A stretch of DNA of 64,000 nt from an uncultured bacterium (GTDB lineage: Bacteria > Babelota > Babeliae > Babelales > RVW-14), in contig CAVXAT010000011.1 of assembly GCA_963759805.1 (NCBI GenBank), positions 32,001 to 96,000 of the forward strand, read 5' to 3'. Of the stretch, positions 4,865 through 64,000 are shown one piece after another. Below the pieces are notes generated by a model. It saw nothing but the letters and a program-made list of their open reading frames with translations, was not told the DNA's origin and ran no database searches. Within the stretch, counting starts at the first letter, position 1. Every line of letters begins with the position of its first letter. A program made the position numbers and the translations under genes.

Positions 4865-5969
4865 ATTTTTTCAATGCAAATTGCCCACAGCCACCGGCAA
4901 TATCAACCCCATGACTACGCCGAACCGTAACCATAAATGACTTTGATTTTAAGAACAGTGCAAAATCATTGATAGTTTTTTCTGTCGAAGCGCGCAATGC
5001 AGGTTTCTGCATTGTATCGTTTGTTGGGTTATACGGAATCAGATTAAATTTAACCTTAACGTTACTCAAAAGCCTGACAAGTTGCTTCGCATGCTCGGCC
5101 TGATCGTTTATGCCCGCTAACATTATGTACTCAATCGTTATGCAATCACGTTTGCCTAATTCAATTTTTTGCAGCTCACCTACAAGCTTTGATAGCGGGA
5201 ACGTTTTATTAATCGGCATGTACTCTGACCTAAGTTCATCGTTTGGAAAATGGAGCGAAACGGCAAGATTTACTTCAAACTTATTGATAAATGCCGCAAT
5301 ACCGGGACCAACCCCGGCAGTAGAAACCGTAATTTTTGATCTGGACAAACCCAATAAATTTTCATCAAGTAGAGTAGATATAGCCCTTTTAACTGCATCT
5401 AAATTCAGAAACGGCTCTCCCATGCCCATAAAAACCACATTTGAGATACGGCCCGCAAGCTTGTGCTCTTGTGCATATTTTTCAACAACCAAAAACTGTC
5501 CTACAATTTCGCTTGAATCAAGCTTTCTGACAAAACCGATCTCGGAACCGGTAGCACAAAAACGGCACTTGAGAGGACACCCAACCATGCAAGATACACA
5601 GATGGTAGCACGTCTTGAAACTATACCCTTTTCATCCTGGCCTGCCAGCCATAGCCTTCCAGAGGCGACGGCTGGAACGATCATTAAAATAGATTCGATT
5701 AATTTACCATCGTGCGCTTTGAGTAAGAACTTATAAGAACCATCTTTTTTGGACTCAATAACATCTTCAATTTGCGGAACAAAAAAATCGAATTTCTCTG
5801 ATAGCATAGTCTGCATGTTTTTTGAAAAACTTGTCATTTTAGAAAAATCGAACACATGCTTTTTGAAAATCCAATCACAAAGTTGGGTAAGCCTGAATTT
5901 TTCAAATCCAAATTCAAGCATTAACTCTTTAAGTTCACCAAACGATAAATCCAAAATATTTTTTCTCAT
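4857..5969 (-). CDS. rlmN: 23S rRNA m2A2503 radical SAM methyltransferase RlmN, carrying a 12-aa in-frame repeat insertion
   Basis: CxxxCxxC (CPLKCRFC), MGMGEP and GCGQ motifs. Confidence 0.96.
   Translation of the reverse strand: MRKNILDLSFGELKELMLEFGFEKFRLTQLCDWIFKKHVFDFSKMTSFSKNMQTMLSEKFDFFVPQIEDVIESKKDGSYKFLLKAHDGKLIESILMIVPAVASGRLWLAGQDEKGIVSRRATICVSCMVGCPLKCRFCATGSEIGFVRKLDSSEIVGQFLVVEKYAQEHKLAGRISNVVFMGMGEPFLNLDAVKRAISTLLDENLLGLSRSKITVSTAGVGPGIAAFINKFEVNLAVSLHFPNDELRSEYMPINKTFPLSKLVGELQKIELGKRDCITIEYIMLAGINDQAEHAKQLVRLLSNVKVKFNLIPYNPTNDTMQKPALRASTEKTINDFALFLKSKSFMVTVRRSHGVDIAGGCGQFALKKSK
5639..5674 (-). repeat. Family B 36-bp palindromic element, in frame in rlmN
   Basis: Minus strand CAGCCGTCGCCTCTGGAAGGCTATGGCTGGCAGGCC, closely similar to 30977-31012. 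Removing it restores ...ATC GTT CAG GAT GAA. Confidence 0.88.
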
Positions 5970-6252
5970 ATGAATATCTGCACCTATAAAAACCTGTCAA
6001 AACCTACTAGAAACAGCTAAATTCATTTACAAACTAAGTTTAGCATGACGCTAAAATAAAAGCCAACAGGCTAACAGAACACATTTGGCCCAAATTTGCG
6101 CAAAAAGGCTATTTGGAGGCGGTTTTAAATTAGTATCAAACCAATACCATTGACTTGGACCACTGCGATTAATTATATTTAAAATATACGAAATACCACA
6201 AATACAACACAAAGTAATAAATACTAATCTTTAGGGGGAAGGGGGAAAAATC

Positions 6253-6858
6253 ATGAGATCGCTAAAAATTTTATCACTGGCCTGTCTAATTTCACTGTCG
6301 CAAGCAAACACAACCAAGGCATCGCGAAATTTCGATGCAGATAATCCACCAAATCCAATGGATGCCAAAAATGTTACACTCACCATTTTTAATAAAACAG
6401 ATACGCCAATCAAAACTAGCTTTTTTTTGGAAAATAAAAAAGTATGTCACGGCAAAATAATAGAACCGGGAAACCAGCTCATATTTGATGTAGAAGGAAG
6501 ATACAATAAAAAAAGAGCTTACTTTAAATTTCGTATCCCAGGAGATAAAACCAAAGGCACAGGGGTAAGATTCTTTTACAAAAAAGAAGCCAAAGCCAGA
6601 GGGATAAAAATAGACGAAATATATCTTCTACAAGATAACCAAGGAAACTTTGTTATAAGCACAACTCCGGAAATAAACCAAATAACAACACTTTTGAAGG
6701 CTGACATCCATGCAACTCTGCCACCTGCAGTTTTTCCTGAAAAACGTAAAAAGTCTAACAAGAACAAGGTTGCATCTAAAAAGCATAAAATATCAAAACA
6801 CAAAACAAAATCAAAACATGAAACAAGATTAAAACACGAAGTTGCAATCGAAAATTAA
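6253..6858 (+). CDS. Secreted hypothetical protein with Lys/His-rich basic C-terminal tail
   Basis: N-terminal signal-like peptide, purine-rich RBS, tail EKRKKSNKNKVASKKHKISKHK. Confidence 0.75.
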   Translation: MRSLKILSLACLISLSQANTTKASRNFDADNPPNPMDAKNVTLTIFNKTDTPIKTSFFLENKKVCHGKIIEPGNQLIFDVEGRYNKKRAYFKFRIPGDKTKGTGVRFFYKKEAKARGIKIDEIYLLQDNQGNFVISTTPEINQITTLLKADIHATLPPAVFPEKRKKSNKNKVASKKHKISKHKTKSKHETRLKHEVAIEN

Positions 6859-6889
6859 TATTCAAAAATTATAATTTAATCGCAAACAG

Positions 6890-6921: not shown

Positions 6922-6942
6922 TGCTATCTAAATCAATCGTCT

Positions 6943-8037: not shown

Positions 8038-8343
8038 CCACCTACGCCCTCCGCCTAACGGCTTCGTGGCTATGCATGGCAGGCCATCTCTGACCATTAT
8101 CCCGTGACTTCTTTGCGTCATAAGCAACCGTGCTTTTTAACCAAAAAGGCTTCGTAATATCCGTGCTTTTTAACCAAATATTAACTAAAGTTAGAATTGT
8201 TTGATCATCAAAATAGCTCGTAATTTATTCGCCGTCGCCAGAAAACCCCATGGCTTACGACGAAGCCCCGAGCGTTGCGATGGGGCGAAGACGGGTTTGG
8301 CTATGGCGGAATTTCGCGCGATACAACGGCTTTAAAGCCGTTG
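8038..8343. repeat. Intergenic cluster of degenerate or nested family B-like palindromes, an 18-bp direct repeat and a perfect 20-bp palindrome
   Basis: 8038-8085 CGCCC..TTCGTGGCTA..GGCAGGCC; 8230-8310 GCCGTCGCC..GGCTATGGC; CCGTGCTTTTTAACCAAA at 8128 and 8161; CAACGGCTTTAAAGCCGTTG at 8324-8343. Confidence 0.65.
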
Positions 8344-8365: not shown

Positions 8366-9685
8366 TTAAAGGCTTTTTATACCGACACAATTCCATTCAT
8401 CCGAAATCTTTTTGACAGCAACTTTATCAAAACATACTGCAATTCCACAGTCCCCTCCCCCGGCACCGGAGAGCTTGGCAGCTGCACCATATCTTTGGGC
8501 AATTCCAACCAGTTTTTTTAATTCTTGAGTCTCCAACTCGATGCCAGATTCAATACTTAATTGAGCAAGCAGATCTCGATTTTTATTTATTAAATCAATT
8601 ATTTTAACTTGATCACAGCATTTGAGTGCGCTAACAAGTTTGCATACAACAGAATTTATTGACTCCATAATTTTTTTGTACTGCACCAGATTTTCTTGTC
8701 TGAATTTATGCATTTTTTCAATCATTTTGTGAGTTGACGCACTGCAGCCGGTAAATCCTATCAATACACGCAATTTTTCAGGCATTTTAATCTCTTTAAT
8801 TTCAAGATTTGGCCAATCGGCAAAAATTATGTCACTAATTTTTTGCCCAAATTCTGCTTTTGACCCTAATTTCGACGCTACTTTTAATTCAAGTTTTGAT
8901 TTAAGCCATTCAGGATCAAATCTACTGTAAATAATCGGCTTTTGATAAGTTGAGCATGCAACATCAAAACCGCTACCCAATTTACCAAATGCAAGATAAT
9001 GAGATATGCATGCAAGTTTAAAAATTAAGTCTACGTTTTTAACAGAATCAGTATCAAAATCATGAAATTTCAAAATAGCCTTGCAAACTGCAACAACAAC
9101 AGCGGCACTGCTACCAAGCCCAGGTTTGCAAAAACTAAACTTACTGTGCCCCGGCATTGCTAAATCATTAACATTTGAAATCTCAGAAATAACCGTTAGC
9201 TCAAACGGTTTTATCGCCGCGCCCTGCTCACTCAAAAACTGCAGGCTGTTTTGAATGGCGATAAAACATGGCTTGAAACGTAACTTTTGCACTTGAGAAA
9301 TATTTGCATGATTTGCAAGAGAAACGCCATCCCAGCGCAGAACAACGTCAATCAAATCGATATCTTGGGAATTAAAAATAATCTGCTCGCAGGATACTGC
9401 ACCATTTTGCGTAATTAATATATCATTCTTGCCCGCTCGTGGTGAGTGTTTTTTGCAGGCCGCACCCTTCGATACGCCTCGCAAAGCTCGGCACTCAGGG
9501 CGAGCGGCCAAAAAAAATGTATCGAACCATGCGGGCATAAAATTTGCCTCTAATGGTACGAGTTGTACAGTAACATACTTTTGTACCGGCAAAACAATAC
9601 AACTGTTGCCCGGCTCAAGAACTCCCCACTCTCCGGCAAGCATAATTTTACCTGGAGCTTTAACCTCAATCACCGGCAACTCCAC
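8366..9685 (-). CDS. mvaK2: Phosphomevalonate kinase (GHMP) with in-frame repeat insertion
   Basis: APGKIMLAGEW, KPGLGSSAA, GSGFDVA and KLSGAGGGDCG motifs; overlaps the end of mvaD. Confidence 0.92.
   Translation of the reverse strand: MELPVIEVKAPGKIMLAGEWGVLEPGNSCIVLPVQKYVTVQLVPLEANFMPAWFDTFFLAARPECRALRGVSKGAACKKHSPRAGKNDILITQNGAVSCEQIIFNSQDIDLIDVVLRWDGVSLANHANISQVQKLRFKPCFIAIQNSLQFLSEQGAAIKPFELTVISEISNVNDLAMPGHSKFSFCKPGLGSSAAVVVAVCKAILKFHDFDTDSVKNVDLIFKLACISHYLAFGKLGSGFDVACSTYQKPIIYSRFDPEWLKSKLELKVASKLGSKAEFGQKISDIIFADWPNLEIKEIKMPEKLRVLIGFTGCSASTHKMIEKMHKFRQENLVQYKKIMESINSVVCKLVSALKCCDQVKIIDLINKNRDLLAQLSIESGIELETQELKKLVGIAQRYGAAAKLSGAGGGDCGIAVCFDKVAVKKISDEWNCVGIKSL
9430..9537 (+). repeat. 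Family A element with a second, inverted family A copy nested inside (108 bp, in frame in pmk)
   Basis: TGCCCGC-TCGTGGTGAGTG...TGTATCGAACCAT-GCGGGCA enclosing CCCTTCGATACG...CACTCAGGGCGAGCGG. Confidence 0.88.
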
Positions 9686-12590: not shown

Positions 12591-13298
12591 TTAGTAGCTG
12601 CGTACCGCACAAAAAATTAGAATAAATGCCCAAGTCAGCAAGACCGTAAAAAAAACAGAGTCAAAGCGATCGAGAAATCCACCATGCCCCGGCAGAACAT
12701 TGCCAACATCTTTTAAACCTTTGCGGCGCTTTAAAATAGAGATCAGCATGCCACCAAGAAATGCGCAAGCAGTAAATATTAACGAAATTACAAGAACTGC
12801 TGCAAGTGTTAAGATTGTAATTTTGCAAAAATAAGAACAGATTGGTTCAATTTTGATTTTTGGCAAAAGAAAAAAATTCAAAATTGACACGCCCACAAAA
12901 CTGCCTAAAATACCCTCCCACGATTTGCCCGGACTAATTGTTGGGTAAATTTTATGGGTACCCCATATTTTCCCAACAAAATATCCAAATGTGTCCGCAG
13001 TCCATGCAACTAAAAACGGATAAAGCGGTATGAGCAGATCAACCGAGTGGAAACGGTAATTCAAAAAAATCAGACTAAATATGGGCAAAATTGGATAAAA
13101 AACAGTTGCAATCCACGAGAACGGCGACTCAAAACTAACAAGTTTTGGCCATTCAAAAACAAGAACCAAAATAAGAATTATAAGCAACAGCAATGAAAAC
13201 ATTGCAACTGAGTGAAGATATGCTCCACCAAAACAGAAAACAATAACTAGTGAGGTTAACAGTCGTTTGAAAAATTCAGCACTAAAAATAAAAATCAT
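12591..13298 (-). CDS. cdsA: Phosphatidate cytidylyltransferase
   Basis: DTFGYFVG, ISPGKSWEG and LKD.G..LPGHGGFLDRFDS motifs. Confidence 0.95.
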   Translation of the reverse strand: MIFIFSAEFFKRLLTSLVIVFCFGGAYLHSVAMFSLLLLIILILVLVFEWPKLVSFESPFSWIATVFYPILPIFSLIFLNYRFHSVDLLIPLYPFLVAWTADTFGYFVGKIWGTHKIYPTISPGKSWEGILGSFVGVSILNFFLLPKIKIEPICSYFCKITILTLAAVLVISLIFTACAFLGGMLISILKRRKGLKDVGNVLPGHGGFLDRFDSVFFTVLLTWAFILIFCAVRSY

Positions 13299-14212
13299 TT
13301 TTTATAAACTACCTTTCGCAAACAAAGCCCACACGCCTCGGCTTTGAGCAACGTTTGTCTTGGATCCGGATTCTCTAACAACGTCTTTATGTAGTTTACA
13401 GATAAATTCTTACGACGTGCAACATCCAGCGCATATCCAATCATGCGACGGATCTGAAAGCGCAGAAAGCCCGGACCTTTTACTGTAACCCTAAGCATGC
13501 CTAATCGATCAAGGCGCTCTAATTTTACGCTGTCGATAGTACGTATGGTAGACTTTTTCCCAAACTTAAGAACCCGTTGAAATGGTTCGACAAGCTCCCA
13601 GGCTTCGCCCTTCGTGGCTACGCCGGGCACGGCACCACGAGCGGGTTCTTCCCCCCGCTCATCCTGAGTGATTTGCGTAGCAAATTGTATCGAAGGATCA
13701 CGGTCTTCCGCATCCACTTTACAAAATGACCCAAAATCATGCTGCCCAACATACAAATTCAAGGCATTTTCAAACTTACCCAGATCAACCTGATCTATAA
13801 ACTTGTATAACCAAGCATAGCGAGCCAAAAAGGGTAAGGGCCGTTTAAAAAAAAGATGATAATAGTAAGTTTTTTGTGCAACATTAAAGCATGCATGAAA
13901 TTCATCTGGCACTACTTGCAAGTCGCGAATTAATATACTTTTGGGTAACATGTTATTCCAAGCCGATTTAATGATATTCAGATCTAAATCACAAAGCTCT
14001 GTTTTAAACATAGCCACCTGCTCCAAAGCATGTACCCCCGTATCTGTACGCGACGCACCAATTAAATTTATTTGATAACCAAAAACTTTACTGAATGTTT
14101 GCTCCAGGGTAGATGAAATTGAAACGGCTTCCGGCTGTTTCTGCCAGCCGAAAAAATCAGTCCCATCATAAGCAATAATTGCTTTTATCTTTTGATTATT
14201 CAACTTTTGCAT
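13295..14212 (-). CDS. truA: tRNA pseudouridine(38-40) synthase TruA with about 45-aa in-frame repeat insertion
   Basis: AYDGT.F.GWQ, SRTDTGVHA, GQHDF.SF and FLRFQIRRM motifs; start placed at ATG 14212. Confidence 0.94.
   Translation of the reverse strand: MQKLNNQKIKAIIAYDGTDFFGWQKQPEAVSISSTLEQTFSKVFGYQINLIGASRTDTGVHALEQVAMFKTELCDLDLNIIKSAWNNMLPKSILIRDLQVVPDEFHACFNVAQKTYYYHLFFKRPLPFLARYAWLYKFIDQVDLGKFENALNLYVGQHDFGSFCKVDAEDRDPSIQFATQITQDERGEEPARGAVPGVATKGEAWELVEPFQRVLKFGKKSTIRTIDSVKLERLDRLGMLRVTVKGPGFLRFQIRRMIGYALDVARRKNLSVNYIKTLLENPDPRQTLLKAEACGLCLRKVVYKK
13568..13698. repeat. Composite of family A containing family B (13598-13633) plus a second inverted family A copy, in frame in truA
   Basis: ATGGTTCGACAAGCTC[36 bp]ACCACGAGCG flanked by AAGAACCCG/CGGGTTCTT, then CCGCTCATCCTGAGTG-hairpin-TGTATCGAAGGAT. 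Confidence 0.9.
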
Positions 14213-24523: not shown

Positions 24524-25349
24524 GTGGGTATGGGAACAAATGGAATGAGTTGATTGTTGTAACGTGTTTTTTCATTTTAATATAGGAGGTTTCTCGTGAA
24601 AAATCTAAAAATATTTTTAGCTGTAGCGGCTTTGTGTGTAGGCGCTACACATAGTTTGTTGGCTATGCAAACCGGTAAAACGCGCAGAGAGGCGATGCAA
24701 GCACATCATCAAGCGCTTAAAAGCGCTCGTTGGGAATCGCGCCTGCTGGCGAAGTTAGTATCTGCACAACAGCAGAAAGCCATTGCCCAGGCGCCTGCAA
24801 CGCCATGCGCTTTGCAGGAAGCCTTTAGGAATGCTGCAAGGCAGATGTCGGGTGATGTAGATAGGGCGCAGAGCAGACAACTTGATTTGTTTGAACAATT
24901 ACAACATCAAGCTACCCATAACACATCACATATGTCGCATAAAACAACCCATACTGCTCACACAAATCGGAAATTGGCCTATATGTTACTTGCCTGTTTA
25001 CTTATTCAATCTGCACACGGTGCTATATTGGATGGCCAGCTAACAAAAGTAGCTGATCTAAGTGAACAAATAAAGCAAGTTTGTCATGAAATTGAAAGCA
25101 AATTTCCAGGGGCAGGAATCTGTGCTACAATACTTACTAATACTGGAATCGGTGCCCTTTGTGGGGGAGCACCTGGTGCTTTAGCTGGCGCTGGAATAAC
25201 AATAGCAGGAGAGGCGGCGATAAAAGCTATAAACAACTTTATACATGACATAGCCGGTCCAGAATGGGAAGCTAAGATAGCTCAGTACGCGGGCAAGGTA
25301 AGTCAGGGTATCAACCGGGTTGGGGCTAAAGGTCTCATGGCCTTAGATA

Positions 25350-27998: not shown

Positions 27999-28030
27999 AT
28001 CCATGGATGCTGAAATAAATTCAGCATGAC
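27999..28030 (-). repeat. Family C REP-like palindrome
   Basis: Reverse complement of 33211-33242: GTCATGCTGAA....TTTCAGCATCCATGGAT. Confidence 0.8.
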
Positions 28031-28167
28031 AGATCTCTGATCGGAAGCTACTTTTGACATCCACAGCTATTTTTACTAGTTATCGAACTGGCGTTAAGTA
28101 TTTTCGGTTGGCGAAAATCCAACACGGATAAAGGTTAGCCACCAGCCCATAACTAAACCAATGTCTT

Positions 28168-29334: not shown

Positions 29335-31165
29335 TTATTTAATATCGCTTTTTACTTGCGCAATATGTTCTATAATCACGGCATCCCCCGGAGAAATTGT
29401 TAAGGCTTTTTCAAATAACTCAAGAGCCTGTTCTTTTTTGCCCATTTTTGAAAGTACCAAACCCTTTGTATCAAGATAAAAAGGAGAGTTGGCATCGTCC
29501 AGCAACGCCTTATTAACATAATCAAGCGCCTCGGGTAGATTTTGCCCCTGCTTTGCATAAGCGTATGCAAGTAAATTATAAGAGGCAGGATAAACAACAG
29601 GATGTTTTATTGACTGCAGAAGAATATTTTCCATATTTTTAGTTTGATTAGTTAAGAAATAGATATAGGCAACCTGATACAAAACCTTTGATTTTAAATC
29701 AAAATCCGGTACCGAATCAAAAATCTTTTTATATAAAGCAATGCTGGTTTTGTAATTCTTCTGTTCGACACAAATATCTGCCAATGCGGCCCAAACTCCA
29801 ACAGTGGCTCTGTTGGCCTTTAAAACATCTTCCAACAAACTTGCTATGGCAGATTTAGAAAAACCGGCCTGACTCAGCAACAAAATAGTATGTATGACAG
29901 AATTATCATATGGTTCGCGTTTTAACCAATCACCCATAAACGTCAAAATTTGATTATGATTCTTCATCGCAAGCAGTATCTCAACTTTTAACAGCTTGCC
30001 ACGAATAAAATTTGGAGCCTTTTGAATACAGGTATTTATATGCTGCAATGCCTTTTTGTAATTTCCGGAATTAAATTCGATCATTGCCATATCAAAGAAA
30101 TACTCCGGGGTGTCTCCTTTAAGTTTTTTAAGATACTTTAGAGCTTCAGGCATTCGATTTTGCGAAAACATAAGCTGAATTAACTGTTTCTCAATCATCT
30201 CATCACGCCCAACAAGAGTCAAGAAATGTTGATATCCCTTAATTGCTTCATTAATATTTCCAAGTTGCTCAAGAAGCATCGCTTTTAAAAGCAGCGCTTT
30301 ATCAAATTTAGGAAACATCTCAAGACTCTTCTCAATGTCACGCATAGCCAAATCGTTTTTACTCATGTGCATATGAACTTTTGAACGTAAAAAATAAAAC
30401 AGGAAGGCTCTTGGCTTGAACATCGGCTTTTCCAAACACTCATTAAGATATGCCAAGCTTTTTTCAAGCTGATTATTTTTTATAAGAGACACGGCAAAGT
30501 AGTATGCCACCTGCTCATTATCCGGAAAGTCTTTTGCCAAATTTAAAAAGATTTTCTCAGCTTTTTCATCCTGGTTAGCCATTAAAAATGCCTGCGCTAC
30601 CAAAAGATTAAATTCCAGATTTTTTTCGAAGAATTTTTTGAATTTGTCTTCGCTTTTTTGATAAATTTCAACAACCTTCAAAATTTGTCCGATATCAAAT
30701 AAAAATCTAAAGTATCCATCATAAACAAAGATCGGCGGATTCTTTGCAAAAAGTTTTTTATAAATCTGCATTGCCTGCTTGGCATCACCCTTGGAATGAA
30801 AATAATTTGCTTGAGATGTAAAGATTATAAGTGGCTTCATCTGATTTTGAATTATTACCATCTAAATCTGCAGGCTGGTCATCTACAAAGGCAATTTTGC
30901 AACCACTGTCATCTTCTAGCTGAGTAGCTTTTGGTTTAGCAGATCTCTTCTGGCACTCGCATCCTTCGACAGGCTCCAGCCGTCGCTCTTGGAGAGCTAT
31001 GGCCGGCACGGCAGGACGAGCGCCTTTAAGTAGGCGCGCTCGTGGTGAGCTTGTCGAACCATCACCCATAGGTGACGCGCCAGAGTTCATCTGATCGGGC
31101 AAGACCACTCCAAAAACTGTGCTTAAACAACTCAGAATAATCAACTTCCTAAACAAATTCTTCAT
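29335..31165 (-). CDS. Signal-peptide TPR protein; apparent 1-nt frameshift near 30810; carries an in-frame composite repeat
   Basis: Overlapping ORFs 30785-31165 (signal peptide) and 29335-30861 (TPRs, YNLLAY...YLDTKG) join as ...YNLYIS/ANYFHSKG. Confidence 0.8.
30941..31081. repeat. Composite of two inverted family A copies with family B (30977-31012) nested, in frame in the TPR gene
   Basis: ATCCTTCGACAGGCTC[36 bp]AGGACGAGCG...GCGCTCGTGGTGAGCTTGTCGAACCATCACC; same layout as 40329-40473. Confidence 0.9.
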
Positions 31166-33198: not shown

Positions 33199-33210
33199 GG
33201 GCGCAGGCTT

Positions 33211-33242
33211 GTCATGCTGAACTCGTTTCAGCATCCATGGAT
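33211..33242 (+). repeat. Family C REP-like palindrome
   Basis: GTCATGCTGAACTCGTTTCAGCATCCATGGAT, just downstream of rarA. Confidence 0.8.
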
Positions 33243-40328: not shown

Positions 40329-40473
40329 AGATCTCTTCTGAAACTCGCATCCTTCGACAGGCTCCCAGCCTTCGCTTTGGGTAGCTTCGGCGGGCACGGC
40401 AGGATGAGCGCATCGGGGAGTCGCGCTCGTGGTGAGCTTGTCGAACCATCACCCATACCAATGGGTGACGCGC
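40329..40473. repeat. Intergenic composite of two inverted family A copies with family B (40365-40400) nested
   Basis: AGATCTCTTCTG..ACTCGCATCCTTCGACAGGCTC[36 bp]AGGATGAGCG..GCGCTCGTGGTGAGCTTGTCGAACCATCACCCAT..GGTGACGCGC. Confidence 0.9.
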
Positions 40474-40489
40474 TGGGCCTCAGAAAATT

Positions 40490-44558: not shown

Positions 44559-45105
44559 GTGAATCGCACCGGCTTAAAAGCGCGGTGCTTCTACCTTATT
44601 GATTTTTTATGTACTCTCTAACTTTATTCACATTTACCTCACCAACCGTCTCAGCAAAATATCCATCTGACCAGAAGCTGTCACCCCATAAGAACTCTTC
44701 AAGCTCCGGAAACTCTTCCCTAATTACTTTGCTGCTTCCACCCTTTAACAACTGAACTGCATAGCTTACACTTATATTTTGTTTTAACTGAATTAGCATA
44801 TGCACGTGATCTTCTTGAATGCTTAGCTCTTTAACTTCCCATTTATTAACGTCTGCGCACTGTAAAAACAACTCCTTCAGTCGCTCCGCGACCTTTCCCT
44901 TCAATACTCTTTTTCTATACTTGGGAATCCATACTATATGATACATTAGCCTGTGTTTCGTATGCGCACCTGTCCAATACTTTTCCATGTATCATAGTAT
45001 GCCATTTCCAGTGGCTCTTCGCAAAATTTAGTAAACTAATTTTGCTTCGCGCCAGCGGTGAGCTTTCATCCCCAGGCTTGAAAGACCTGGGGGTTTCAGC
45101 TCTTT
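44559..45105 (-). mobile_element. IS200-type element (tnpA only) with subterminal hairpins; ends approximate
   Basis: Hairpins GCACCG..CGGTGC (about 44566-44588) and CCCCAGG..CCTGGGG (about 45070-45092) flank tnpA. Confidence 0.75.
44596..44988 (-). CDS. tnpA: IS200/IS605 family HUH (Y1) transposase
   Basis: YHIVWIPKYRK, DHVH, LKGGSS, FWSDGYF and YIKNQ motifs. Confidence 0.96.
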   Translation of the reverse strand: MEKYWTGAHTKHRLMYHIVWIPKYRKRVLKGKVAERLKELFLQCADVNKWEVKELSIQEDHVHMLIQLKQNISVSYAVQLLKGGSSKVIREEFPELEEFLWGDSFWSDGYFAETVGEVNVNKVREYIKNQ

Positions 45106-48733: not shown

Positions 48734-49564
48734 ATGAAAAACATAACTAAAATACTATTAACAGGATTTATCGCAGGATGCGGCGTTGCAAACATATTTG
48801 CAATGAAAGTAGATGAGACAAAAGAGGTGAAAGTCCCTGAGGTAGCGGCTGCCACTGCTGCTGCACCAAACACTACTGAATTTCACATGCTAATTCCTAT
48901 CACAGAAGATTTAGACATTTTGTCAGCATCAACTGATGAAGTATTGCGAAATATTTTAGCACGGCATGTTGGAAGTTATTTCGCAGAAAGTTATTTAAAC
49001 AACGTATTTAATCAAGGCATACTTCTTAAAAAACTCGAACTAGCAATCAATAGACTAAAAGAACTAAGATTTGTAAAGCACAGATTCGCAATTTTTTTAA
49101 CACACCAAGAGATGATAAATATTTTAATAGAAGCAAATATAGTTAGATATGCCAATCAATATAATCCTGATATAGGAGAGACACTGCTGCACAGAGCCTT
49201 ACGTATTGGAAAATTTGATTTAGCCAAATTTTTAATTGAAGCAGAGGTAAATATTAATTCTCCAACTCGCGCCCCAATAGATCCAAAAATTCTTAGGCGT
49301 TTTCCTGTTGGGACAACTTCTTTGCATATGGCATCCAGAGCAGGACGCCCTGAACTGGTAAGATTATTGACAGAACGTGGAGCAGATGTCACGGCAGCAA
49401 CCTCTAGTCCCTATCGACACTTAGATAATCTCACAGCGTTGGATTATGCAAGAAATGCTGATTGCACAAAGATAATTGCCATTCTTGAAGGAGCATATAC
49501 TGCAAGTAAATCTCCTATTCCTAGCGATGAAAATAGCGATATCCCTAATTTTAGCCTTGGATAA
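48734..49564 (+). CDS. Secreted ankyrin-repeat protein, degenerate F-box-like region
   Basis: GETLLHRA, GTTSLHMA and TALDYA; paralog of 49604-50485. Confidence 0.88.
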   Translation: MKNITKILLTGFIAGCGVANIFAMKVDETKEVKVPEVAAATAAAPNTTEFHMLIPITEDLDILSASTDEVLRNILARHVGSYFAESYLNNVFNQGILLKKLELAINRLKELRFVKHRFAIFLTHQEMINILIEANIVRYANQYNPDIGETLLHRALRIGKFDLAKFLIEAEVNINSPTRAPIDPKILRRFPVGTTSLHMASRAGRPELVRLLTERGADVTAATSSPYRHLDNLTALDYARNADCTKIIAILEGAYTASKSPIPSDENSDIPNFSLG

Positions 49565-49603
49565 GCCAATATAAAAACCAATACAAAAATAAAGACATTT
49601 ATT

Positions 49604-50485
49604 ATGAAAAACATTAATAAAATACTATTAACAGGATTTATTGTAGGATGCTCTGTTGCAAGCATATTTGCAATGAAAATAGATGAGGTAAAAGGAACGC
49701 AAGCCCATGAGACAGCGGCCGCATCTGCCGCTGCTAAAGCACCAAGCGCTACTGACGTTCACGTACTGATGCCTATCGCAGGAAATTTAGGCTATTTGTC
49801 AACACTACCAGATGAACTGATAGTAAAAATTTTGGTTCATTCTATTGAAGAAATCAATCTTGCAATATTAGAGCTAAAAAGACTAAGACTTGTAAACAAA
49901 ACATTCAAAAATTTTTTATCAGATCAAGAAATCGCAAAGATTTTGGGATTTAAAAATCTTGAAAATATAGTTATATATGCTAACCAAATCAACCCTGATA
50001 AGGGAGAAACTCTACTGCACAAAGCCATACGTACTAGGAAATTTGCATTAGCCAAATTTTTAATTGAAGCAGGGGTAAATATTAATGCTCCAACGATATC
50101 CCCCAGAGACCCAAAACTTCTTAAGCGTTTCCCAGTTGGGACAACTTCTTTGCATATGGCAGTCAGAAAAGGACCGCCGCAACTTGTAAGATTATTGATA
50201 GAGCGTGGGGCAGATGTCACTGCAGTCTGCCACAGCGATTATCCACGAGAGAACAACATCACCGCTTTGGATTATGCAATAAGAGCCAATCGACAAGACA
50301 TTATTGCCATTCTTGCCGAAGGATATAAGGCAATGGGCTTGACTATGCCTGCTGCTACCGCAGTTGCGCACCCTCATGTCCCAAGACCGCTAAATTTTGA
50401 TAGAACAGAAGACGAAAATAACGCAGGCGATGGTAATTTCGCAATTCCACCTGCACCAAAGCGTCACGAGCCTTCGGCCCAATAA
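49604..50485 (+). CDS. Secreted F-box plus ankyrin-repeat protein
   Basis: LSTLPDELIVKIL...LRLVNKTF followed by ankyrin repeats. Confidence 0.85.
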   Translation: MKNINKILLTGFIVGCSVASIFAMKIDEVKGTQAHETAAASAAAKAPSATDVHVLMPIAGNLGYLSTLPDELIVKILVHSIEEINLAILELKRLRLVNKTFKNFLSDQEIAKILGFKNLENIVIYANQINPDKGETLLHKAIRTRKFALAKFLIEAGVNINAPTISPRDPKLLKRFPVGTTSLHMAVRKGPPQLVRLLIERGADVTAVCHSDYPRENNITALDYAIRANRQDIIAILAEGYKAMGLTMPAATAVAHPHVPRPLNFDRTEDENNAGDGNFAIPPAPKRHEPSAQ

Positions 50486-53686: not shown

Positions 53687-56600
53687 ATGAAGAAGAAGTT
53701 AGTTTTTATATGGCTTTTAGCGTTCATCACTCAATGTTTACAATCATCTACAAATAAATTACCACGCAATAAATCCATACGTAAATGGTCCCGGCAGTTA
53801 AGTCGCTCAATCTCGGTCGGATCGCTGGGAGCGGATGCAAATGTGACGGCATTTGCAGGTCCGAGCCAATTTTATATCGGTACAGCCGCAAATAATGCGG
53901 ACAAGTCCCTAACACGGGTATACACTACTCGTGGAGATGATGGTACCCTGAACCTGGGATTTCAAGGTATGGCTCCAAACGACGGCAGTGTAATGATCAA
54001 CACCGAACCTGACCAAAACAGTCCCCTGAATGCACAAAACATTAGTAATCTTGTAATCGGCGCTAATAAGTACCCAATAGTTGGCCTGGTTGATGGAACA
54101 GATGGGGTCGAGGAATACCCTACCGAAGGGATATTTATATATCAAGTTATTGATACAAATAAGGGCGAATTTATTTTACAAACAGCAAGTGCAGATCTTT
54201 CAGATAAATATCCACTAAATGATGCCGAAGGTGTAGATATTTCAAGTGAGTATCCAGAACCCGGTACGGCCAAAGGGCTCCATGCGCTTGCAGCAACACA
54301 AAAAAATGTTTTTTCGAACGTACCTATGATATTTGCGCTTGTTTCCAGTAGCACATCTCTAAATGCTGCAAAACCTGCAAGTATTGGTGTTGTACCTGTA
54401 AGTGTTAACACTGATTATCTTAATCCACTTGACGCTACCGATTTCGCTAAGTCAGGAGAAGAGAACAAAGCGAAACCAATTATGGGAATGCTCACAATTC
54501 CAACCAATTCTTCAACAATTCCAACATTTCTGGAAGGCGCGCTGGTAAATATGTGGTGGGATGATACTTTACAAACTTTGTATATCGCAGTATCAGCCAT
54601 GCAAACGGGAAATAATGCCGGCAATGGCGCAATCGCGCTTTTGATTGGAAAAATAACAAGCGTAACCACCGGAGTCATCACAACCAACAGCTTGCAAATA
54701 CAAAAAAGCGTCGATCTTTCAACTTCAGGCTGGCCCACCGGAGCTACAAATAAAAATTGGATCGTTGGGTATGTAAATGATAGCACCACTAAAACACAAA
54801 CTATAAATCTTTACAAAGTACGCGTAATGCATACAAGCACCGGTAAAGATTATGTAATATTAAACGGTGAAGTTGCTCAAACTATCGACAACACAATGTG
54901 CGTAGTTTATGCCCTACCGGTCATGCCAAATAATCCTAACCTGCCAAATAATAATGCCAATGCCGGAAAATTGGCAACTGCAGATCCCAATACCGGAAAT
55001 TTTTCGGTAATAACTCAGGGGAGCCAGTTACTTAGAGACACAGATCCTAAATCCATCGTTGGAACAAATCCCCCAACAGTTGGAGCCAACACCCTAACCA
55101 ATCCCCAATATATTGTTCACGCAACCACCGCCGCAGCATTTTCTAACGCAACAATCAATGATATGCAAATTTCAGGTGATACAGTTTATGTCTCAGTAGC
55201 AGGAGATCGAGGTAATGGTGGATCAAATACAGCAGGAGAAGCCGGGATATTCGCTTCAACTGCAGTTTTTGATAAAAACGGTGTAATTCGTGCATGGACT
55301 CCATGGCAAAGGGTTATGGGATTTACAGACAAAGCTTATGGATTTGGCTTTGACACGGGATCAAATAACTTTTGGTACATTGGTACGGATAAACAGACAG
55401 CAAAAATGACGGCTTGGAGTTCCGGAGATGCATCTCCAACAGGAATTCATGAAGGAAGTCCTCTTTCCACCGCACTTCAACCCTATTTTTCCGCAAATGC
55501 ACTTGGAATCGTAAATCTTTCAAACTTTGATGATCAAACACCTGGATTTAAACCATGGGATCCGGCATCTTTATATCCGGCCTTTTCAATGATGATCGCA
55601 TCCGGATTGGGCAATGTTGCCTTGATACAAACAGGCGACCGATCAAGCACAAATCAATCTGCCTTTAAACCAACAACAGGTTTCGTTCCTACACTTGTTC
55701 AAAGTACAACTACTACAACATCAGGAACCCCTAATGTTTTTGTTTTTAACAACACGGTCACTCAAGCCTTAGGATTTATAACAACTGCTGAAGTTTCACG
55801 AACACAAACATCTGCCATTCCTTCAAATAGGCAAACGGTATATCAGACAGGTGGGTGGTTATTTATTGGCGGCAGCAATGGTATTGCAGTACTATGCCAA
55901 TCAGACGGCTCGGGGTGGAATACATCTACCGGGCTTTCAGGTTTATCCAACACAAACTTTCCTGTTAATGGGTACGCCTTTAACCTGCTAACGCCACCAC
56001 CAGGCGTAACTCCGGCATACAATTTTTCAAACATTTTAAAACTCGTATCTGACGGCAAGTATCTTTATATTTTAACCCCATCTGATTTATACAGACTTGA
56101 AATGAATGCAAATGATTTTGCACCTAATGCAACTATAAATCCCAGACGCATAAATCGCATTGCGGGGATTGATAAAGACATTGACAGATTTTTTGACTTA
56201 TTAGTAATTGATGGCACAAATAACGCAAAAAAACTCGCAATTGCAACAACACAAGGCGTTTGGGTGTCCACTGAGATAAAAGATAATTTTGTACCTATAA
56301 CTAGGACCCAAAAATTGGATGGCCCATCATTAAGCTTTGACTTTTTATCCGTTCAACGCGGAGGCGGCACCACTGACAACAACGGTAATAATATGGTCAA
56401 TGGCAACCTGTATGTGACAGCCATCGATCCTACATTCAGCAATTTAGCCGTTTATCGTTTTGACGTAAATAATGGTTCATTAACTTTATTTAATGAGCCA
56501 TACGATACAAAATATTTTTATACACTAGCAACTCTAGGAAACACATTTAAGGGAATACAATTTGGAGTTCTTGATCACGTTGGACGCAACGGTCAACTCT

Positions 56601-56791
56601 CGCAAAGCATTGGAGTAATACCTGATCCAATTAAATTTTTACCAAAAACTTTAAGCATTTTACCGTATTATGCAGCCATTGATCTGGGAATGGATCCCCA
56701 AGCGGCCTTGCATCTTTTTTCAATAATCCAAGATACGGCATCAGGAGCCCTTTACATACCGGGAGAATTTAATGTTTTTGTTAACGAATAG
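53687..56791 (+). CDS. Large secreted beta-rich hypothetical protein (paralog 1)
   Basis: 1034 aa, signal peptide, AAGGAGGAG RBS, motif blocks shared with the next gene. Confidence 0.85.
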   Translation: MKKKLVFIWLLAFITQCLQSSTNKLPRNKSIRKWSRQLSRSISVGSLGADANVTAFAGPSQFYIGTAANNADKSLTRVYTTRGDDGTLNLGFQGMAPNDGSVMINTEPDQNSPLNAQNISNLVIGANKYPIVGLVDGTDGVEEYPTEGIFIYQVIDTNKGEFILQTASADLSDKYPLNDAEGVDISSEYPEPGTAKGLHALAATQKNVFSNVPMIFALVSSSTSLNAAKPASIGVVPVSVNTDYLNPLDATDFAKSGEENKAKPIMGMLTIPTNSSTIPTFLEGALVNMWWDDTLQTLYIAVSAMQTGNNAGNGAIALLIGKITSVTTGVITTNSLQIQKSVDLSTSGWPTGATNKNWIVGYVNDSTTKTQTINLYKVRVMHTSTGKDYVILNGEVAQTIDNTMCVVYALPVMPNNPNLPNNNANAGKLATADPNTGNFSVITQGSQLLRDTDPKSIVGTNPPTVGANTLTNPQYIVHATTAAAFSNATINDMQISGDTVYVSVAGDRGNGGSNTAGEAGIFASTAVFDKNGVIRAWTPWQRVMGFTDKAYGFGFDTGSNNFWYIGTDKQTAKMTAWSSGDASPTGIHEGSPLSTALQPYFSANALGIVNLSNFDDQTPGFKPWDPASLYPAFSMMIASGLGNVALIQTGDRSSTNQSAFKPTTGFVPTLVQSTTTTTSGTPNVFVFNNTVTQALGFITTAEVSRTQTSAIPSNRQTVYQTGGWLFIGGSNGIAVLCQSDGSGWNTSTGLSGLSNTNFPVNGYAFNLLTPPPGVTPAYNFSNILKLVSDGKYLYILTPSDLYRLEMNANDFAPNATINPRRINRIAGIDKDIDRFFDLLVIDGTNNAKKLAIATTQGVWVSTEIKDNFVPITRTQKLDGPSLSFDFLSVQRGGGTTDNNGNNMVNGNLYVTAIDPTFSNLAVYRFDVNNGSLTLFNEPYDTKYFYTLATLGNTFKGIQFGVLDHVGRNGQLSQSIGVIPDPIKFLPKTLSILPYYAAIDLGMDPQAALHLFSIIQDTASGALYIPGEFNVFVNE

Positions 56792-56822
56792 TATCCAACC
56801 CATATTTAAAATAAGGAAATTT

Positions 56823-59800
56823 ATGAAAAACAGAAAGTCGCTGATCTTCAAAAAGTCACTGTACAAAAAATCAGTAATATGCTTGATGTTGATGTTGTTG
56901 TTAACTAGTCAAAATGCTACACTTTTTTCATCGGTGGAACATTTTGTCCCTCTCGATCCGGCAGGAACAAATAAACTCATCTTCGGTAAAACTGTTTTTG
57001 ACAACGCAAAATCTAATTTTTTTCTGGGAGCACAAACTTATACTCCCGTTAGCGTTGCCACCACATATGTTGACCCAAAGACATTCGCCATAACCAGAGC
57101 AGCAACTGATAATGCTCTAACCGAAATTTTTGGCATTACACCTCAAACCACTTCAATGCCAAACCCATCACCGGAAGCAGGCAATCCAGTATACGAATCA
57201 GTGCCAAATCCTCTTTATGGACAAGTAATTTTAAATCTTGGCTTATTCAGCAATATTTATCCAATAGTTACATGGACACAAGGTTCCAGCAGTTCCACGT
57301 ACAATTTTGTAGCCTTAATTCTAGCCCCACAGGATGGAAGTGCAACCATAACAACAACCAACACGTTATGTGATGCCGGAGGACAACCAACCCAAGAGAT
57401 AAAGGCTTTAACCGGATCAAATAAATACGTTTTTGCTGCAGTCTCTGCCACCGGCCTAAATTGGAACGATCCTTCCACGACAGATTACAATCGTGGAATA
57501 GCTGCTTTAACAACCACTGTGACTACAGCACCTGCAACGATTTCTCAAATTCCTGCACCAACTATAAACGTTCCTACAAATGCACCAAAGGCTCAAATCG
57601 TTGATGTAAGAACAAATGCCAAAATGATAAGTTTCAGCGATGCAGTAAGTCCTACGCCCGGAACCATACAAGCCCTTATTGGTTCTGATGTCGACATGTA
57701 CTGGGACAGTGGTTTATCAAGACTTTTCATTGGATTATCAGGTGTAAAACGCGACGTCCCTACTAATGAAGGGGGATGCTTCAGCGTTCTGGTTGGAAGA
57801 ATCGATACAGACAAAACATCTGGAAAAGACATTGCTTTTAGTTTATCACCAATTTTATCTTCACCATCAAAAACTCAGTTTACCCCTGATTCAACCAATT
57901 TTATGATTGGTTTTTATTACAATACAACAGGTACAAATGACATCACAATTTCTGCAAACAAAGTACGCGTCATGCACACAAGCACAGGTTACAATTACTT
58001 AATCGTAAATTGCGATGTAACTGAAAGTACTCCTAATACATATAGCGGAGTTTTTGCATTACCTTTGATCGGCGCAACAAAATCGGATGGCACCACACCC
58101 CAGGATCCAAAACTTATTGGAACACTCGCTCAAGTTCAACCAGTTAATTTTTATGCAGCTCCAACCGCCCCTGCAAACATGCCTCAAAAAAATCAAGTCC
58201 CTGTTATAGTCGGAGGTAAAACTTTACCCATGGGAGATTTAAGTGACATGTTTGTACGCGGAGACTCAGTCTTTATTTGTTTAAAGAATTTAACTGATGT
58301 TCAAGACGCAGGAATCTTTCAAAGCACAGCATTGTTCGACAAAAACGGCTTTATCATCGCTTGGACCCCATGGCAGAGAGTCATGGGAGATATTCAGCAA
58401 GTTTATGGTGGAGGTGTTGATAAATTTAGCAATTTCTATTTTCTTGCAACAGAAAATCCAACAGATCCCTCAAAAATAGACCCAAACACCATAAGAATTA
58501 CACAGTGGGGAACAACTGAGAATGTTAATGAAATCGAAACTATAACCATTCCAACCACACCAACCGGTACGACACCTGCAACAAATCCTAAGGCTGAGAT
58601 GAATCCAGATCCAAACAGAAATTTGTCAGCAGTTCTCTCCGGCATCTTTCCCCAGGATCAATGCGGCGCATTGCAGATAATTAATTTCGATGAAAAAACA
58701 CCGGGATTTAATCCAAACTTTTCTATGATGGTTGCGATTGGATACAATTCAGTTGCACTAATTCAAACAATGAAAGCCGGAGTACCGGTAACAAAATTTG
58801 AAACATCGGGCACAAATCAAAATGTTTTTGTCTTTAAAAATGATGCCCTGAATGCAATCGCTCCCCTTTGCTTTGTCGAAGTTGCCAGAAGGCCCGCCGA
58901 TCCATCAACTCCAGATGTTTACGCAAATGCAGGCTGGCTTTTTGTCGGTGGGTACAAAGGCGTTGCTGTCTTGAGCCAAAACGATGGTAGTGGCTGGGAT
59001 TCGAACACAGGTCTTGATAATCTTGCCAAAGCAACCCCTCCAGACACCACCCCAACATTCCCAGGTACTGGTTACACTTTTAAACAATTAACCCCAAGCA
59101 ATGGTGGTGATTTTGACAATGTAAGAAAGCTGGCAAGTTTGATAAGTGCTGATACTCAAAAATTATTTATTCAAACAAGAGATAATTTGTACGCAATTGC
59201 TCAAGATGCAAATAAATTCAGCAATTCTCCAGAGGCACTTAATGAGCAAAAGCTTTTAAATAATCTTCCTGAAGATTTGAAATTCACTGATCTTTTAATA
59301 ATTCCAAATTCGGATGATCCTACGGCAACACAAAGCAACAAATTTACATTTCTGCTCGGCTCAACGTCTGGATTATTTGTTGGGAGTAATTATGATAAAA
59401 TTAATGGGAAAATAGATATTATCAATCCATACCCTGGCGATCCAGTCTTACAACTGTGCTATATTTCGCAAACCAAAGGTCTAAACAGCACCAAAGGCAA
59501 TCTGTATGCACTTTCAGCAAATTTTCTAAGCAGCACCGGCAAAGTTAACAGATATTCAGTCAATGGAAGCCTACCTACGCTGGCCAATCGAATTAATCCG
59601 CTTGGCACAAGTCCATTCATTGATCTCTACAACTTCCGCGGCGATTTCATAACCGATGGAGCCTTCGGGTTCAGCATGATTGCAAGGGGCCCTTCCAACA
59701 ATTTCTTGACTGATCTTTATCAAATCGCACAAACTCAAATAGAAACCGGTTCAATTGATAGTTTACTTGGACTGAAAGGTTCAAACTGGTATATAGGAGT

Positions 59801-59870
59801 AATAAGTCGCAACACTGCCTCAGGATCATGGATGGTCCCAGGCGATTGGGGTATAAGAGTTAACGAATAA
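56823..59870 (+). CDS. Large secreted beta-rich hypothetical protein (paralog 2)
   Basis: Start placed at ATG 56823 after AAGGA; shares KVRVMHTSTG, AWTPWQRVMG, GWLF.GG and the terminal VNE. Confidence 0.85.
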   Translation: MKNRKSLIFKKSLYKKSVICLMLMLLLTSQNATLFSSVEHFVPLDPAGTNKLIFGKTVFDNAKSNFFLGAQTYTPVSVATTYVDPKTFAITRAATDNALTEIFGITPQTTSMPNPSPEAGNPVYESVPNPLYGQVILNLGLFSNIYPIVTWTQGSSSSTYNFVALILAPQDGSATITTTNTLCDAGGQPTQEIKALTGSNKYVFAAVSATGLNWNDPSTTDYNRGIAALTTTVTTAPATISQIPAPTINVPTNAPKAQIVDVRTNAKMISFSDAVSPTPGTIQALIGSDVDMYWDSGLSRLFIGLSGVKRDVPTNEGGCFSVLVGRIDTDKTSGKDIAFSLSPILSSPSKTQFTPDSTNFMIGFYYNTTGTNDITISANKVRVMHTSTGYNYLIVNCDVTESTPNTYSGVFALPLIGATKSDGTTPQDPKLIGTLAQVQPVNFYAAPTAPANMPQKNQVPVIVGGKTLPMGDLSDMFVRGDSVFICLKNLTDVQDAGIFQSTALFDKNGFIIAWTPWQRVMGDIQQVYGGGVDKFSNFYFLATENPTDPSKIDPNTIRITQWGTTENVNEIETITIPTTPTGTTPATNPKAEMNPDPNRNLSAVLSGIFPQDQCGALQIINFDEKTPGFNPNFSMMVAIGYNSVALIQTMKAGVPVTKFETSGTNQNVFVFKNDALNAIAPLCFVEVARRPADPSTPDVYANAGWLFVGGYKGVAVLSQNDGSGWDSNTGLDNLAKATPPDTTPTFPGTGYTFKQLTPSNGGDFDNVRKLASLISADTQKLFIQTRDNLYAIAQDANKFSNSPEALNEQKLLNNLPEDLKFTDLLIIPNSDDPTATQSNKFTFLLGSTSGLFVGSNYDKINGKIDIINPYPGDPVLQLCYISQTKGLNSTKGNLYALSANFLSSTGKVNRYSVNGSLPTLANRINPLGTSPFIDLYNFRGDFITDGAFGFSMIARGPSNNFLTDLYQIAQTQIETGSIDSLLGLKGSNWYIGVISRNTASGSWMVPGDWGIRVNE

Positions 59871-61179: not shown

Positions 61180-61198
61180 AATATACTTAAATTAAGAA

Positions 61199-63256: not shown

Positions 63257-63260
63257 GATG

Positions 63261-64000
63261 CTAAGCATTAACCTGTGTTTTTATAACAAAATATCCACGC
63301 TCTTCAAAAAACGTTGCAACTTTTGATTGTAGATCAATCTCCGGCGTAAGTGCAAAAACCAACCCGCCACGCCCGGTGCCGGTAAGTTTTGCACCCAATG
63401 CGCCAAGCTCACAAGCTTTATCAGTAATCATATCAAGTTCAGGACAAGAAACCCCAAGTGCTTGTAATAATTTTTGGTTTTTATTCATGTACATGCCAAG
63501 TTTTTCTAAATTATTATTTTCAAGCGCATCCAAGCCAAGAGAAAAAATATCTCTGTACTGTTCGAAAATTATTTTTGTTTTATCCGGATTTTTTTCAATA
63601 AAATCACGCACAGATGATACAACTTGTTTGATATTCGTTTGCTTGCCACTATCGATAATGACAATTCTGATTGGATTGGAAATTTGAATTTTTGAATAAG
63701 AAAACGCAGGAGTAAAGAAGCCCGCTCGTGGTGAGTGCGCACCTTGTGCGCGTATCGAACCATCACCCGAAGGGTGACGGGCAGAATCTCTACAAAATTT
63801 TATTACCCCACCAAAAACAGCCGCAGTATTATCAATGCCACTGGGAGTGCCATGCACGGCAAATTCTCCCTCAAACGCCGCTTGATTAACCTCTTCATCG
63901 CCCAAATTAAGATTAAATTTAGAATTTACTGCACGGGCAAAAGATGCTGCAGCCGCCGCGCTTGAGCCAACCCCTCCGCAGGTTACGGGTAGTGTACCTG
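63261..64000 (-). CDS. mvk: Mevalonate kinase (5' end beyond the right edge) with in-frame repeat insertion
   Basis: GVGSSAAAAA near 63950-63975, HGTPSGIDN and GAKLTGTGRGG motifs. Confidence 0.92.
   Translation of the reverse strand, partial: GTLPVTCGGVGSSAAAAASFARAVNSKFNLNLGDEEVNQAAFEGEFAVHGTPSGIDNTAAVFGGVIKFCRDSARHPSGDGSIRAQGAHSPRAGFFTPAFSYSKIQISNPIRIVIIDSGKQTNIKQVVSSVRDFIEKNPDKTKIIFEQYRDIFSLGLDALENNNLEKLGMYMNKNQKLLQALGVSCPELDMITDKACELGALGAKLTGTGRGGLVFALTPEIDLQSKVATFFEERGYFVIKTQVNA
63720..63782 (+). repeat. Family A element (63 bp, in frame in mvk)
   Basis: GCCCG-CTCGTGGTGAGTG-CGCACCTTGTGCG-CGTATCGAACCA-TCACCCGAAGGGTGA-CGGGC. Confidence 0.9.

Follow-up and report, generated by a model that had tools for sequence, protein, structure and literature searches.

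Dispersed hairpin families in a Babelota genome, their in-frame entry into conserved genes and candidate GIY-YIG nuclease partners

Introduction

The means by which palindromic repeats spread in the absence of a transposase, and by which elements like the Rickettsia palindromic elements (RPEs) enter essential genes, have been a question since 2000. This report concerns a 64,000-nt stretch of DNA (the window; positions 32,001 to 96,000 of contig CAVXAT010000011.1) from an uncultured bacterium of the phylum Babelota, in which three families of small hairpins, here called A, B and C, lie in and between genes, together with the small GIY-YIG nuclease genes that adjoin these hairpins in the same genome. 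That genome, G000, comprises 1.5 Mb in 21 contigs and is 88.7% complete; insertion sites were compared with those of a congener, G002, over 1.37 of its roughly 1.5 Mb.

The Ssn family of nucleases (SsnA, cd10448) with its NTS/SRM hairpins was described by Chenal et al. 2025 (PMC11893778). In that work, binding of SsnA to its hairpin required single-stranded DNA, cleavage fell a few bases to the 5' side, and any loop was tolerated. Ssn shares with the Babelota system a gene of about 95 amino acids (aa) with one GIY-YIG domain, bracketed by inverted, tagged, oriented and dispersed hairpins, and family C with its nuclease looks like Ssn. In contrast, the nucleases of A and B are far from those of C in sequence, their nearest solved relatives being UPF0213 proteins for type A (1zg2, E 2e-13) and SLX1 for type B. 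The A and B hairpins also differ in having purine-rich internal loops, and the B cassette is linked to the 3' ends of tRNAs, its two hairpins both lying upstream of the gene. The published SRM pattern was matched exactly at 0/32 type A and 0/33 type B loci, and with one mismatch at 1 and 2; for C there were 0/8 exact matches, 3/8 with one mismatch and 7/8 with two, compared with 11/32 for A and 14/33 for B at two. Whereas NTS copies rarely lie in genes (2%, PMC11893778), 46 of 108 A copies in G000 are inside long open reading frames (ORFs); C, with 4 of 52 copies so placed, is mostly extragenic.

RPEs (Ogata 2000, 2002), as summarised in PMC10969869 and PMC3733652, are likewise palindromes of 60-200 nt inserted in frame into conserved genes of unrelated kinds, in an intracellular bacterium with a small genome; genes for tRNA modification and repair are among those hit, and a recurring peptide results. 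Unlike them, the Babelota hairpins seem to have other sequences, occur in another phylum, nest across families and have candidate cognate enzymes in the same genome. Among repetitive extragenic palindromes (REPs), those with a CGTC tag had no transposase beside them in a 2013 survey (Di Nocera 2013, PMC3733652); C has a TGTC variant of that tag, a stem of 8-9 bp and head-to-head dimers, while A and B are tagged with neither CGTC nor GTAG. REPs and REPINs mobilised by REP-associated tyrosine transposases (RAYTs; TnpA-REP, PMC8266576) are also short, imperfect hairpins that carry a 5' tag, form doublets, have a dedicated enzyme for each hairpin type and are recognised as single strands. They differ in that the partner here is GIY-YIG and not HUH, no RAYT is bracketed by the hairpins, and many copies are intragenic, REPs being mostly extragenic. 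Only a 255-bp carrier found in C loops, with terminal inverted repeats and a duplication of about 9 bp, resembles a miniature inverted-repeat transposable element (MITE), unlike A, B and the units inside genes.

In-frame palindromes (RPEs) and the Ssn/SRM layout are already published. Within the literature searched, to which subscription papers and the supplements of Chenal et al. did not belong, no description was found of A or B repeats in Babelota, of the pairings of A with UPF0213-like and B with SLX1-like nucleases, of their independence in one genome or of hairpin targeting by B. Fig. 5a of Chenal et al. covers all GIY-YIG clades, and the unsearched supplements may bear on the novelty of the A and B pairings.

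Hairpin families

The first-pass annotation of the window, made from its letters alone, had counted nine A and four clean B copies, which proved exact, and took them for members of dispersed families. Across the whole of G000 there are about 108 A and 136 B copies, as well as 52 intact copies of family C. The annotation had missed C, a C half-site beneath the B copy in rlmN, and decayed B-like hairpins near 8048 and 8230. The word CGCTCGTGGTG occurs 42 times in G000 and never in Markov resamples, the 136 B copies compare with 4 and 3 in resamples, and clusters of A, B or C number 171 against 12 and 10.

Each family has its own layout. A consists of a tag CG[CT]TC, a 3-bp stem, an invariant GA opposite GA, one further pair and a variable loop. 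B begins with a short YTG tail, after which come a variable 6-bp stem, a 3x3 internal loop rich in purines, a GC pair of pairs and a loop that varies. C is an 8-bp hairpin with the tag TGTC. Inverted doublets (A/A and C/C) are present. GTAG is absent from the ends of A and B and found only within some B internal loops. Searches of Rfam at gathering and E-value thresholds returned tRNAs and weak chance hits, with no family match for the hairpins. A replication-strand bias was considered for all three families and rejected as inconsistent between two genomes (B 32/60 and 32/45; C 7/26 and 14/23; A 16/30 and 5/16). Other 14-mers, repeated 14-27 times in G000 outside A, B and C, are probably protein repeats.

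The A stem covaries. In searches that did not demand pairing, covariation was seen in 47 of 55 short-loop A matches in G000, in 39 of 44 from 29 Babelota loci and in 120 of 153 from 79 loci mostly of other taxa, but in only 11 of 23 in G002; pair counts from surveys of type A nuclease flanks (29 and 80 loci), which do demand pairing, are excluded as evidence. The earlier suggestion that the stem points to single-strand structure is supported by these figures. The pair inside the GA core also changes on both sides in some lineages. Tandem sheared G.A pairs are a known structural motif, and the invariant GA/GA core within A's covarying stem is predicted to form them on one strand only. Nearest-neighbour DNA folding did not confirm the sheared-G.A strand or the fold of A.

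Small GIY-YIG nucleases beside the hairpins

G000 carries five small GIY-YIG genes: two lie between inverted A hairpins, one between inverted C hairpins, and two after tRNA genes with B upstream. Ten further loci, from five relatives, sort alike, with C-type stems changing together with the protein, and all 15 fall into three sequence types, each adjoining its own hairpin (flanks read by eye). The nucleases are 97, 80 and 99 aa long, and PF01541 is the only domain above cut-off. Type C is provisionally called SsnA-like, going by its hairpin. In a tree, types B and C are each set off by long branches (100/100).

Larger surveys gave the same pairing for type A. An A hairpin lies within 250 nt of 25/29 Babelota type A loci, against 4/156 background windows; the flank detector was widened after the flanks had been read, and at first gave 16/29 on any side. 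Inverted A hairpins bracket 19 of these 29 loci. Across many phyla, in the best 80 of 593 confirmed hits, A lies within 250 nt of 73/80 loci (distal windows 7/118), upstream on the same strand in 63 and on both sides in 37. Near type A genes, B was found at 5/29 Babelota and 0/80 cross-phylum loci, and C at 0/29 and 1/80. Type A genes are patchy, with one to five per genome and internal stops in several.

Type B is arranged differently. A sense tRNA gene lies upstream of 21/29 type B genes, compared with 0/29 for type A. A CCA-anchored B is found upstream of 30/36 type B genes, the tRNA's own CCA forming the end of the B stem, and the downstream arm complementary to this stem end covaries in 27/30 loci. 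The gene is not bracketed: both B copies are upstream, and a downstream B was detected in 1/29 (strict detector). A type B cassette occupies tRNA-Glu in G001 and G002, with none at the matching tRNA-Glu of G000 (mapped by its left flank alone). Upstream of type B genes (L023, L027, L178-L206), the three bases that follow the tRNA CCA covary with local and long-range arms, and two alternative pairings span the end of the tRNA, which may represent a switch or the scar of a template switch. The type C gene is bracketed by inverted C hairpins (by eye). In two cases (L024, L025; G002 C28 and G003 C22) an SsnA-like cassette sits between inverted repeats of about 25 bp belonging to another, larger element.

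The pairing extends to co-occurrence across 151 genomes of the phylum. At least five A copies, counted with a strict pattern that misses A variants, occurred in 26/51 genomes with nuclease A versus 7/100 without; at least five B copies occurred in 28/93 genomes with nuclease B versus 1/58 without. After stratification by the other nuclease, the cognate links remained (p 0.007 or less) and the cross-links vanished (p 0.15-1.0), with p values that ignore kinship. The presence of either nuclease predicts its own hairpin, independently of the other. The hairpins themselves are separable: 10 genomes have at least 10 A and at most one B, and nine show the reverse. In this genus, A is abundant in the pair of genomes that have a type A gene (57 strict matches in G000, 49 in the covered part of G002), and the two that lack it have 4 and 0 matches.

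Insertion into host genes

Within the window, the hairpins and their host genes are as follows.

4857..5969, minus strand: rlmN host gene, 370 aa, with a 19-aa in-frame insert directly before the CxxxCxxC region
5616..5675, plus strand: 57-nt insert in rlmN (ends +/- ~3 nt), a C half-site at ~5632-5639 containing a B hairpin
5641-5675: B copy in the rlmN insert, tail 5641-5644 and stem-loop 5645-5675
8048..8080: decayed B-like hairpin, intergenic
8230..8335: B-like hairpin with a long inserted loop, then another palindrome; intergenic
8366..9685, minus strand: pmk host gene, with a 50-54 aa in-frame insert
9400..9558: composite unit U2 in pmk, outer A 9434-9530 (plus) enclosing inner A 9464-9506 (minus)
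13295..14212, minus strand: truA host gene, with a 41-49 aa in-frame insert
13561..13706: back-to-back A pair in truA, A 13582-13643 (minus) and A 13656-13698 (plus)
13598-13627: B copy in truA, at the TG|AG site of A 13582-13643 (minus)
28005..28031, minus strand: family C hairpin, SRM/CGTC-like, intergenic
30785..31165, minus strand: 5' piece (126 aa) of a tetratricopeptide-repeat (TPR) gene
30941..31085: composite unit U1, in frame in the N-terminal linker of the TPR gene, A 30961-31022 (minus) with B 30976-31006, and A 31037-31062 (plus)
33210..33236, plus strand: family C hairpin, intergenic
40329..40476: U1 between lolD and the probable start of murJ, A 40349-40410 (minus) with B 40365-40394, and A 40424-40449 (plus)
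44596..44988, minus strand: IS200-type Y1 transposase with its own hairpins and no A, B or C adjoining; negative control
63261 to past 64000, minus strand: mvk host gene
63717..63788, plus strand: A 63723-63763 and a short 3' hairpin, in frame in mvk

A fifth B-like match, at 23142, looks like chance. A unit similar to that at 8230..8335 sits in frame at G000 C19:6167.

Orthologs carry empty sites at these positions. The RlmN insert is absent from 5/5 orthologs shown, the PMK site (+54 aa) is empty in 4/4, the TruA site (+49 aa) is empty in 3/3, with +41 aa relative to G002, which keeps an 8-aa remnant, and the internal MVK site is empty in 4/5, with a decayed copy in G002 and +21 aa relative to G003. 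The first description, of non-autonomous dispersed palindromes likened to RPEs, is supported, and these empty sites support the view that peptides were added in frame to core proteins. The added lengths, first put at roughly 12-47 aa, needed correction to 19 for RlmN, 50-54 for PMK, 41-49 for TruA and 21 for MVK. A second MVK insert, of 36 aa, lies just beyond the window. The mvk site is occupied in both G000 and G002, and G003 has only a short scar. Other insert sites common to the two congeners differ in nesting or decay (G000 C2:140790, C11:95723, C16:12498, C8:62825 and C2:87525). One DNA sequencing run (word share 0.05) contained a relative of about 90% identity in short pieces, and no joint in it spanned any insert.

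As the first-pass annotation had proposed, reading frame and catalytic motifs are kept: RlmN retains CxxxCxxC, MGMGEP and CGQ, TruA retains SRTD, and PMK retains GLGSSA and SGAGGGD. The RlmN, TruA and PMK inserts fall in gaps of alignments to solved structures. In the TPR gene, U1 adds a net 33 nt relative to G002, where the gene is a single 598-aa ORF; in the window, a 1-nt frameshift near 30815 parts the 5' piece from the ORF at 29335-30861. The element was considered as the cause of this split and rejected, since the frameshift lies outside it, about 130 nt downstream. The split itself (29335-31165) is either real or an assembly error.

Comparing G000 and G002 both ways, at empty sites gaining more than 15 nt, the insert length was a multiple of three at 26/27 coding sites (20/21 in G000, 6/6 in G002) versus 10/35 non-coding sites. 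This count sets aside clusters lacking a two-sided anchor (33/100 in G000, 19/47 in G002), 17 anchored sites occupied in both genomes and empty sites gaining 15 nt or less (5 coding, 11 non-coding). The sole out-of-frame coding insert, at G000 C1:255726-257522, cuts about 40 aa off the C-terminal tail of an ABC-F ATPase. Because the non-coding copies have no multiple-of-three bias, the reading frame looks like a survival filter of the kind described for RPEs, and the idea that in-frame insertion is a property of the element does not hold. Hosts include alaS, mnmA, miaB, uvrC, gnd, prs, tkt, gpmI, dnaE, dprA and ligD. Such genes stay under purifying selection: the ratio of non-synonymous to synonymous change (pN/pS) was 0.18 in 17 insert-bearing genes and 0.16 in the other 620 ortholog pairs, averages that also span time before insertion. 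Of the six frames of U1 a single one is open throughout, which is why the same peptide recurs; U2 is used either way round.

Nesting, composite units and a larger carrier

B lodges mostly inside hairpins or at tRNA ends: 103/125 copies lie in or adjoin A, B, C or tRNA sequence, and 10/43 tRNA or tmRNA genes carry B at the 3' end. It enters A, C, B and tRNA hairpins, within A at two recurrent junctions (TG|AG and GTA|TCGAA) and within C at several. The insertion unit is 30-45 nt without target duplication, and one junction is exact, being empty in G002 and having 33 nt added in G003 with no duplication. Tandem B arrays also occur in G000, one made up of three 149-nt repeats, each a tRNA 3' fragment whose T-arm holds B, and one of nine repeats of a unit of at least about 69 nt (C14:13249-13635 and C19:8523-9108).

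A mostly travels in the composite units U1 and U2, of 100-190 nt, whose flanks decay outward and whose ends differ by site. These ends are ragged, no target duplication was seen at about 80% flank identity, and the in-gene units lack terminal inverted repeats with a target duplication. U1 and U2 flanks show faint inverted similarity. Nesting of B in A was read correctly at the outset. A within A at pmk is not repeated nesting: U2 is one composite unit that was copied whole to several loci in G000 and G002. The proposed two-tier hierarchy of A and B fell away too, as each occurs without the other and B also enters C, B and tRNA hairpins.

A further tier is the 255-bp element with 13-bp inverted ends and a duplication of about 9 bp, which sits in C loops. 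At four loci it bears A doublets; a nuclease cassette is also carried, SsnA-like in G000 and of type A in G002. The element and its longer versions are at:

G000 C1:41145
G000 C1:159366
G000 C4:96479
G000 C8:91584
G000 C1:132764
G002 C21:11902

Spread of the hairpins

The reading we consider the best, and rather probable, is that A, B and C are three independent selfish hairpins, each with its own GIY-YIG clade that likely nicks single-stranded DNA, copied by repair and filtered by frame within genes. Each small nuclease would nick single-stranded DNA beside its own hairpin, host repair would then copy the hairpin-bearing strand to new sites, and copies landing in genes would persist if the reading frame were kept. 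By analogy with SsnA, the A and B nucleases are presumed to recognise their hairpins and to cleave. For the joining step, repair by annealing or template switching is favoured, more weakly, because GIY-YIG domains are not known to perform strand transfer. Ragged ends, absent duplications and slight microhomology fit repair better than cut-and-paste, a picture that later deletions could mimic. ligD is present in G000 (C1:206144-208819, with an A insert); searches for Ku detected it in G141 and G128 and not in G000 (88.7% complete), G002 or G084. Nesting would follow if B targets existing stem-loops, as predicted, and composite units are then copied whole.

An unlikely alternative is that the nucleases recognise the hairpins in a host or defence role, such as restricting incoming single-stranded DNA or resolving hairpins, with the hairpins spreading by replication slippage or gene conversion independent of them. 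A role of this kind is the one demonstrated in vivo for SsnA in Neisseria (PMC11893778), dprA is present in G000, and some element-rich genomes have no detected nuclease. Such a role sits poorly with nuclease genes that are patchy, multi-copy (one to five of type A per genome) and in several cases interrupted by stops, with a tRNA-Glu type B cassette in G001 and G002 that has no counterpart in G000, and with inserts in alaS, mnmA, miaB and dnaE that bring no obvious benefit. It is less probable still that classical MITEs, mobilised by DDE transposases, carry the hairpins along, the ragged ends arising from later deletions. The 255-bp element, with its A doublets at four loci and its nuclease cassettes in G000 and G002, and the faint inverted similarity in U1 and U2 flanks speak for this; yet the in-gene units lack those ends and any target duplication, B inserts as 30-45 nt without duplication, and the clade-specific pairing across phyla would be left unexplained.

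The link to a RAYT or TnpA gene raised by the first-pass annotation, in which A and B would be REP- or REPIN-like and moved in trans by an HUH tyrosine transposase, is largely refuted and now seems very improbable. Head-to-head and back-to-back doublets do resemble REPINs, and G000 has five Y1 genes, but none of nine Y1 loci examined is bracketed by A, B or C, the four full-length Y1 loci in G000 have IS200-type hairpins of their own, and the terminal GTAG tag is absent from A and B. Moreover, three of five element-rich genomes, G141 (72 A), G084 (32 B) and G148 (27 B), had no Y1 match. Two of the IS200-type transposase copies, in the window at 44596-44988 and at G000 C4:113564, are identical and lack tnpB, each with its own terminal hairpins. 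Least credible of all is that the inserts are removed from RNA or protein, or selected for an RNA or peptide function. Five of the six main window loci are transcribed coding sequence and the U1 peptide recurs; against this, there is no Rfam match, a frame filter would be needless if the insert were spliced from RNA, the recurrence of one U1 frame simply reflects that none of the other five is open throughout, and U2 is used both ways round.

Several observations weigh against independent selfish hairpins with cognate nucleases. All of the support is genomic association, and related genomes are not independent. In PMC11893778, SsnA is shown to restrict transforming DNA, and mobility is a hypothesis only. 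DNA folding gave the proposed A strand the lower energy in 5/9 copies, the higher in three and a tie in one, and missed the proposed stem in several copies. No branch in the tree sets type A apart on one side. Seven of the 151 genomes have at least five A copies without a type A gene; G007, of the same family, has 26 A matches with no type A gene found, and 25 of 51 genomes with the gene have fewer than five strict matches, under a pattern that misses variants. No intact type B gene was found in G000, where one stops at 65 aa and the other is cut by a contig end, and type B was found in only 2/48 genomes outside the phylum sample. The same-strand excess of nested B, A and C copies (79 same, 7 opposite) is soft, because the host patterns for B were written after the data had been seen and favour the same strand, and composite copies inflate the counts. 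Microhomology at A-unit ends (4.1 of 10 versus 2.9 simulated) comes from a small test of 14 ends with a crude null. Lastly, the 255-bp MITE carries A doublets and whole nuclease cassettes, so some of the spread is passive.

A wider proposal, that GIY-YIG nucleases of at least three clades (Ssn, UPF0213-like and SLX1-like) are autonomous partners of transposase-free minimal mobile elements, nicking single-stranded DNA at their own hairpins and leaving host repair to paste these elsewhere, and that tRNA-anchored B parasitises other hairpins, those of A and C among them, is more tentative than the reading preferred above.

Other features of the window

The window also holds a DDE transposase (PF13612) at 25462-26349, a 15-nt tandem repeat encoding (MPSMP)n at 26788-26964 in a 259-aa ORF without a Pfam match, two neighbouring ORFs of about 1,030 aa, also without a Pfam match, at 53687-59870, and tandem pairs of paralogs encoding unknown or ankyrin-repeat proteins at 1560-4864, 22855-25378 and 48734-50485.

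Significance

Each of the three hairpin families comes with a predicted substrate and a candidate enzyme of 80-100 aa, which opens the question to tests with oligonucleotides. If the preferred reading is true, A would be the first substrate for a branch of the uncharacterised UPF0213 family, and the toolbox of single-strand nucleases would reach beyond Ssn. The wider proposal, if true, would add two new families of single-strand nucleases addressed by hairpins and supply the missing enzyme for RPE-like coding palindromes. Meanwhile, comparison of the two congeners yields 26 dated in-frame loop additions to genes that are otherwise constrained, among them alaS, mnmA, miaB, tkt, gpmI, prs and gnd.

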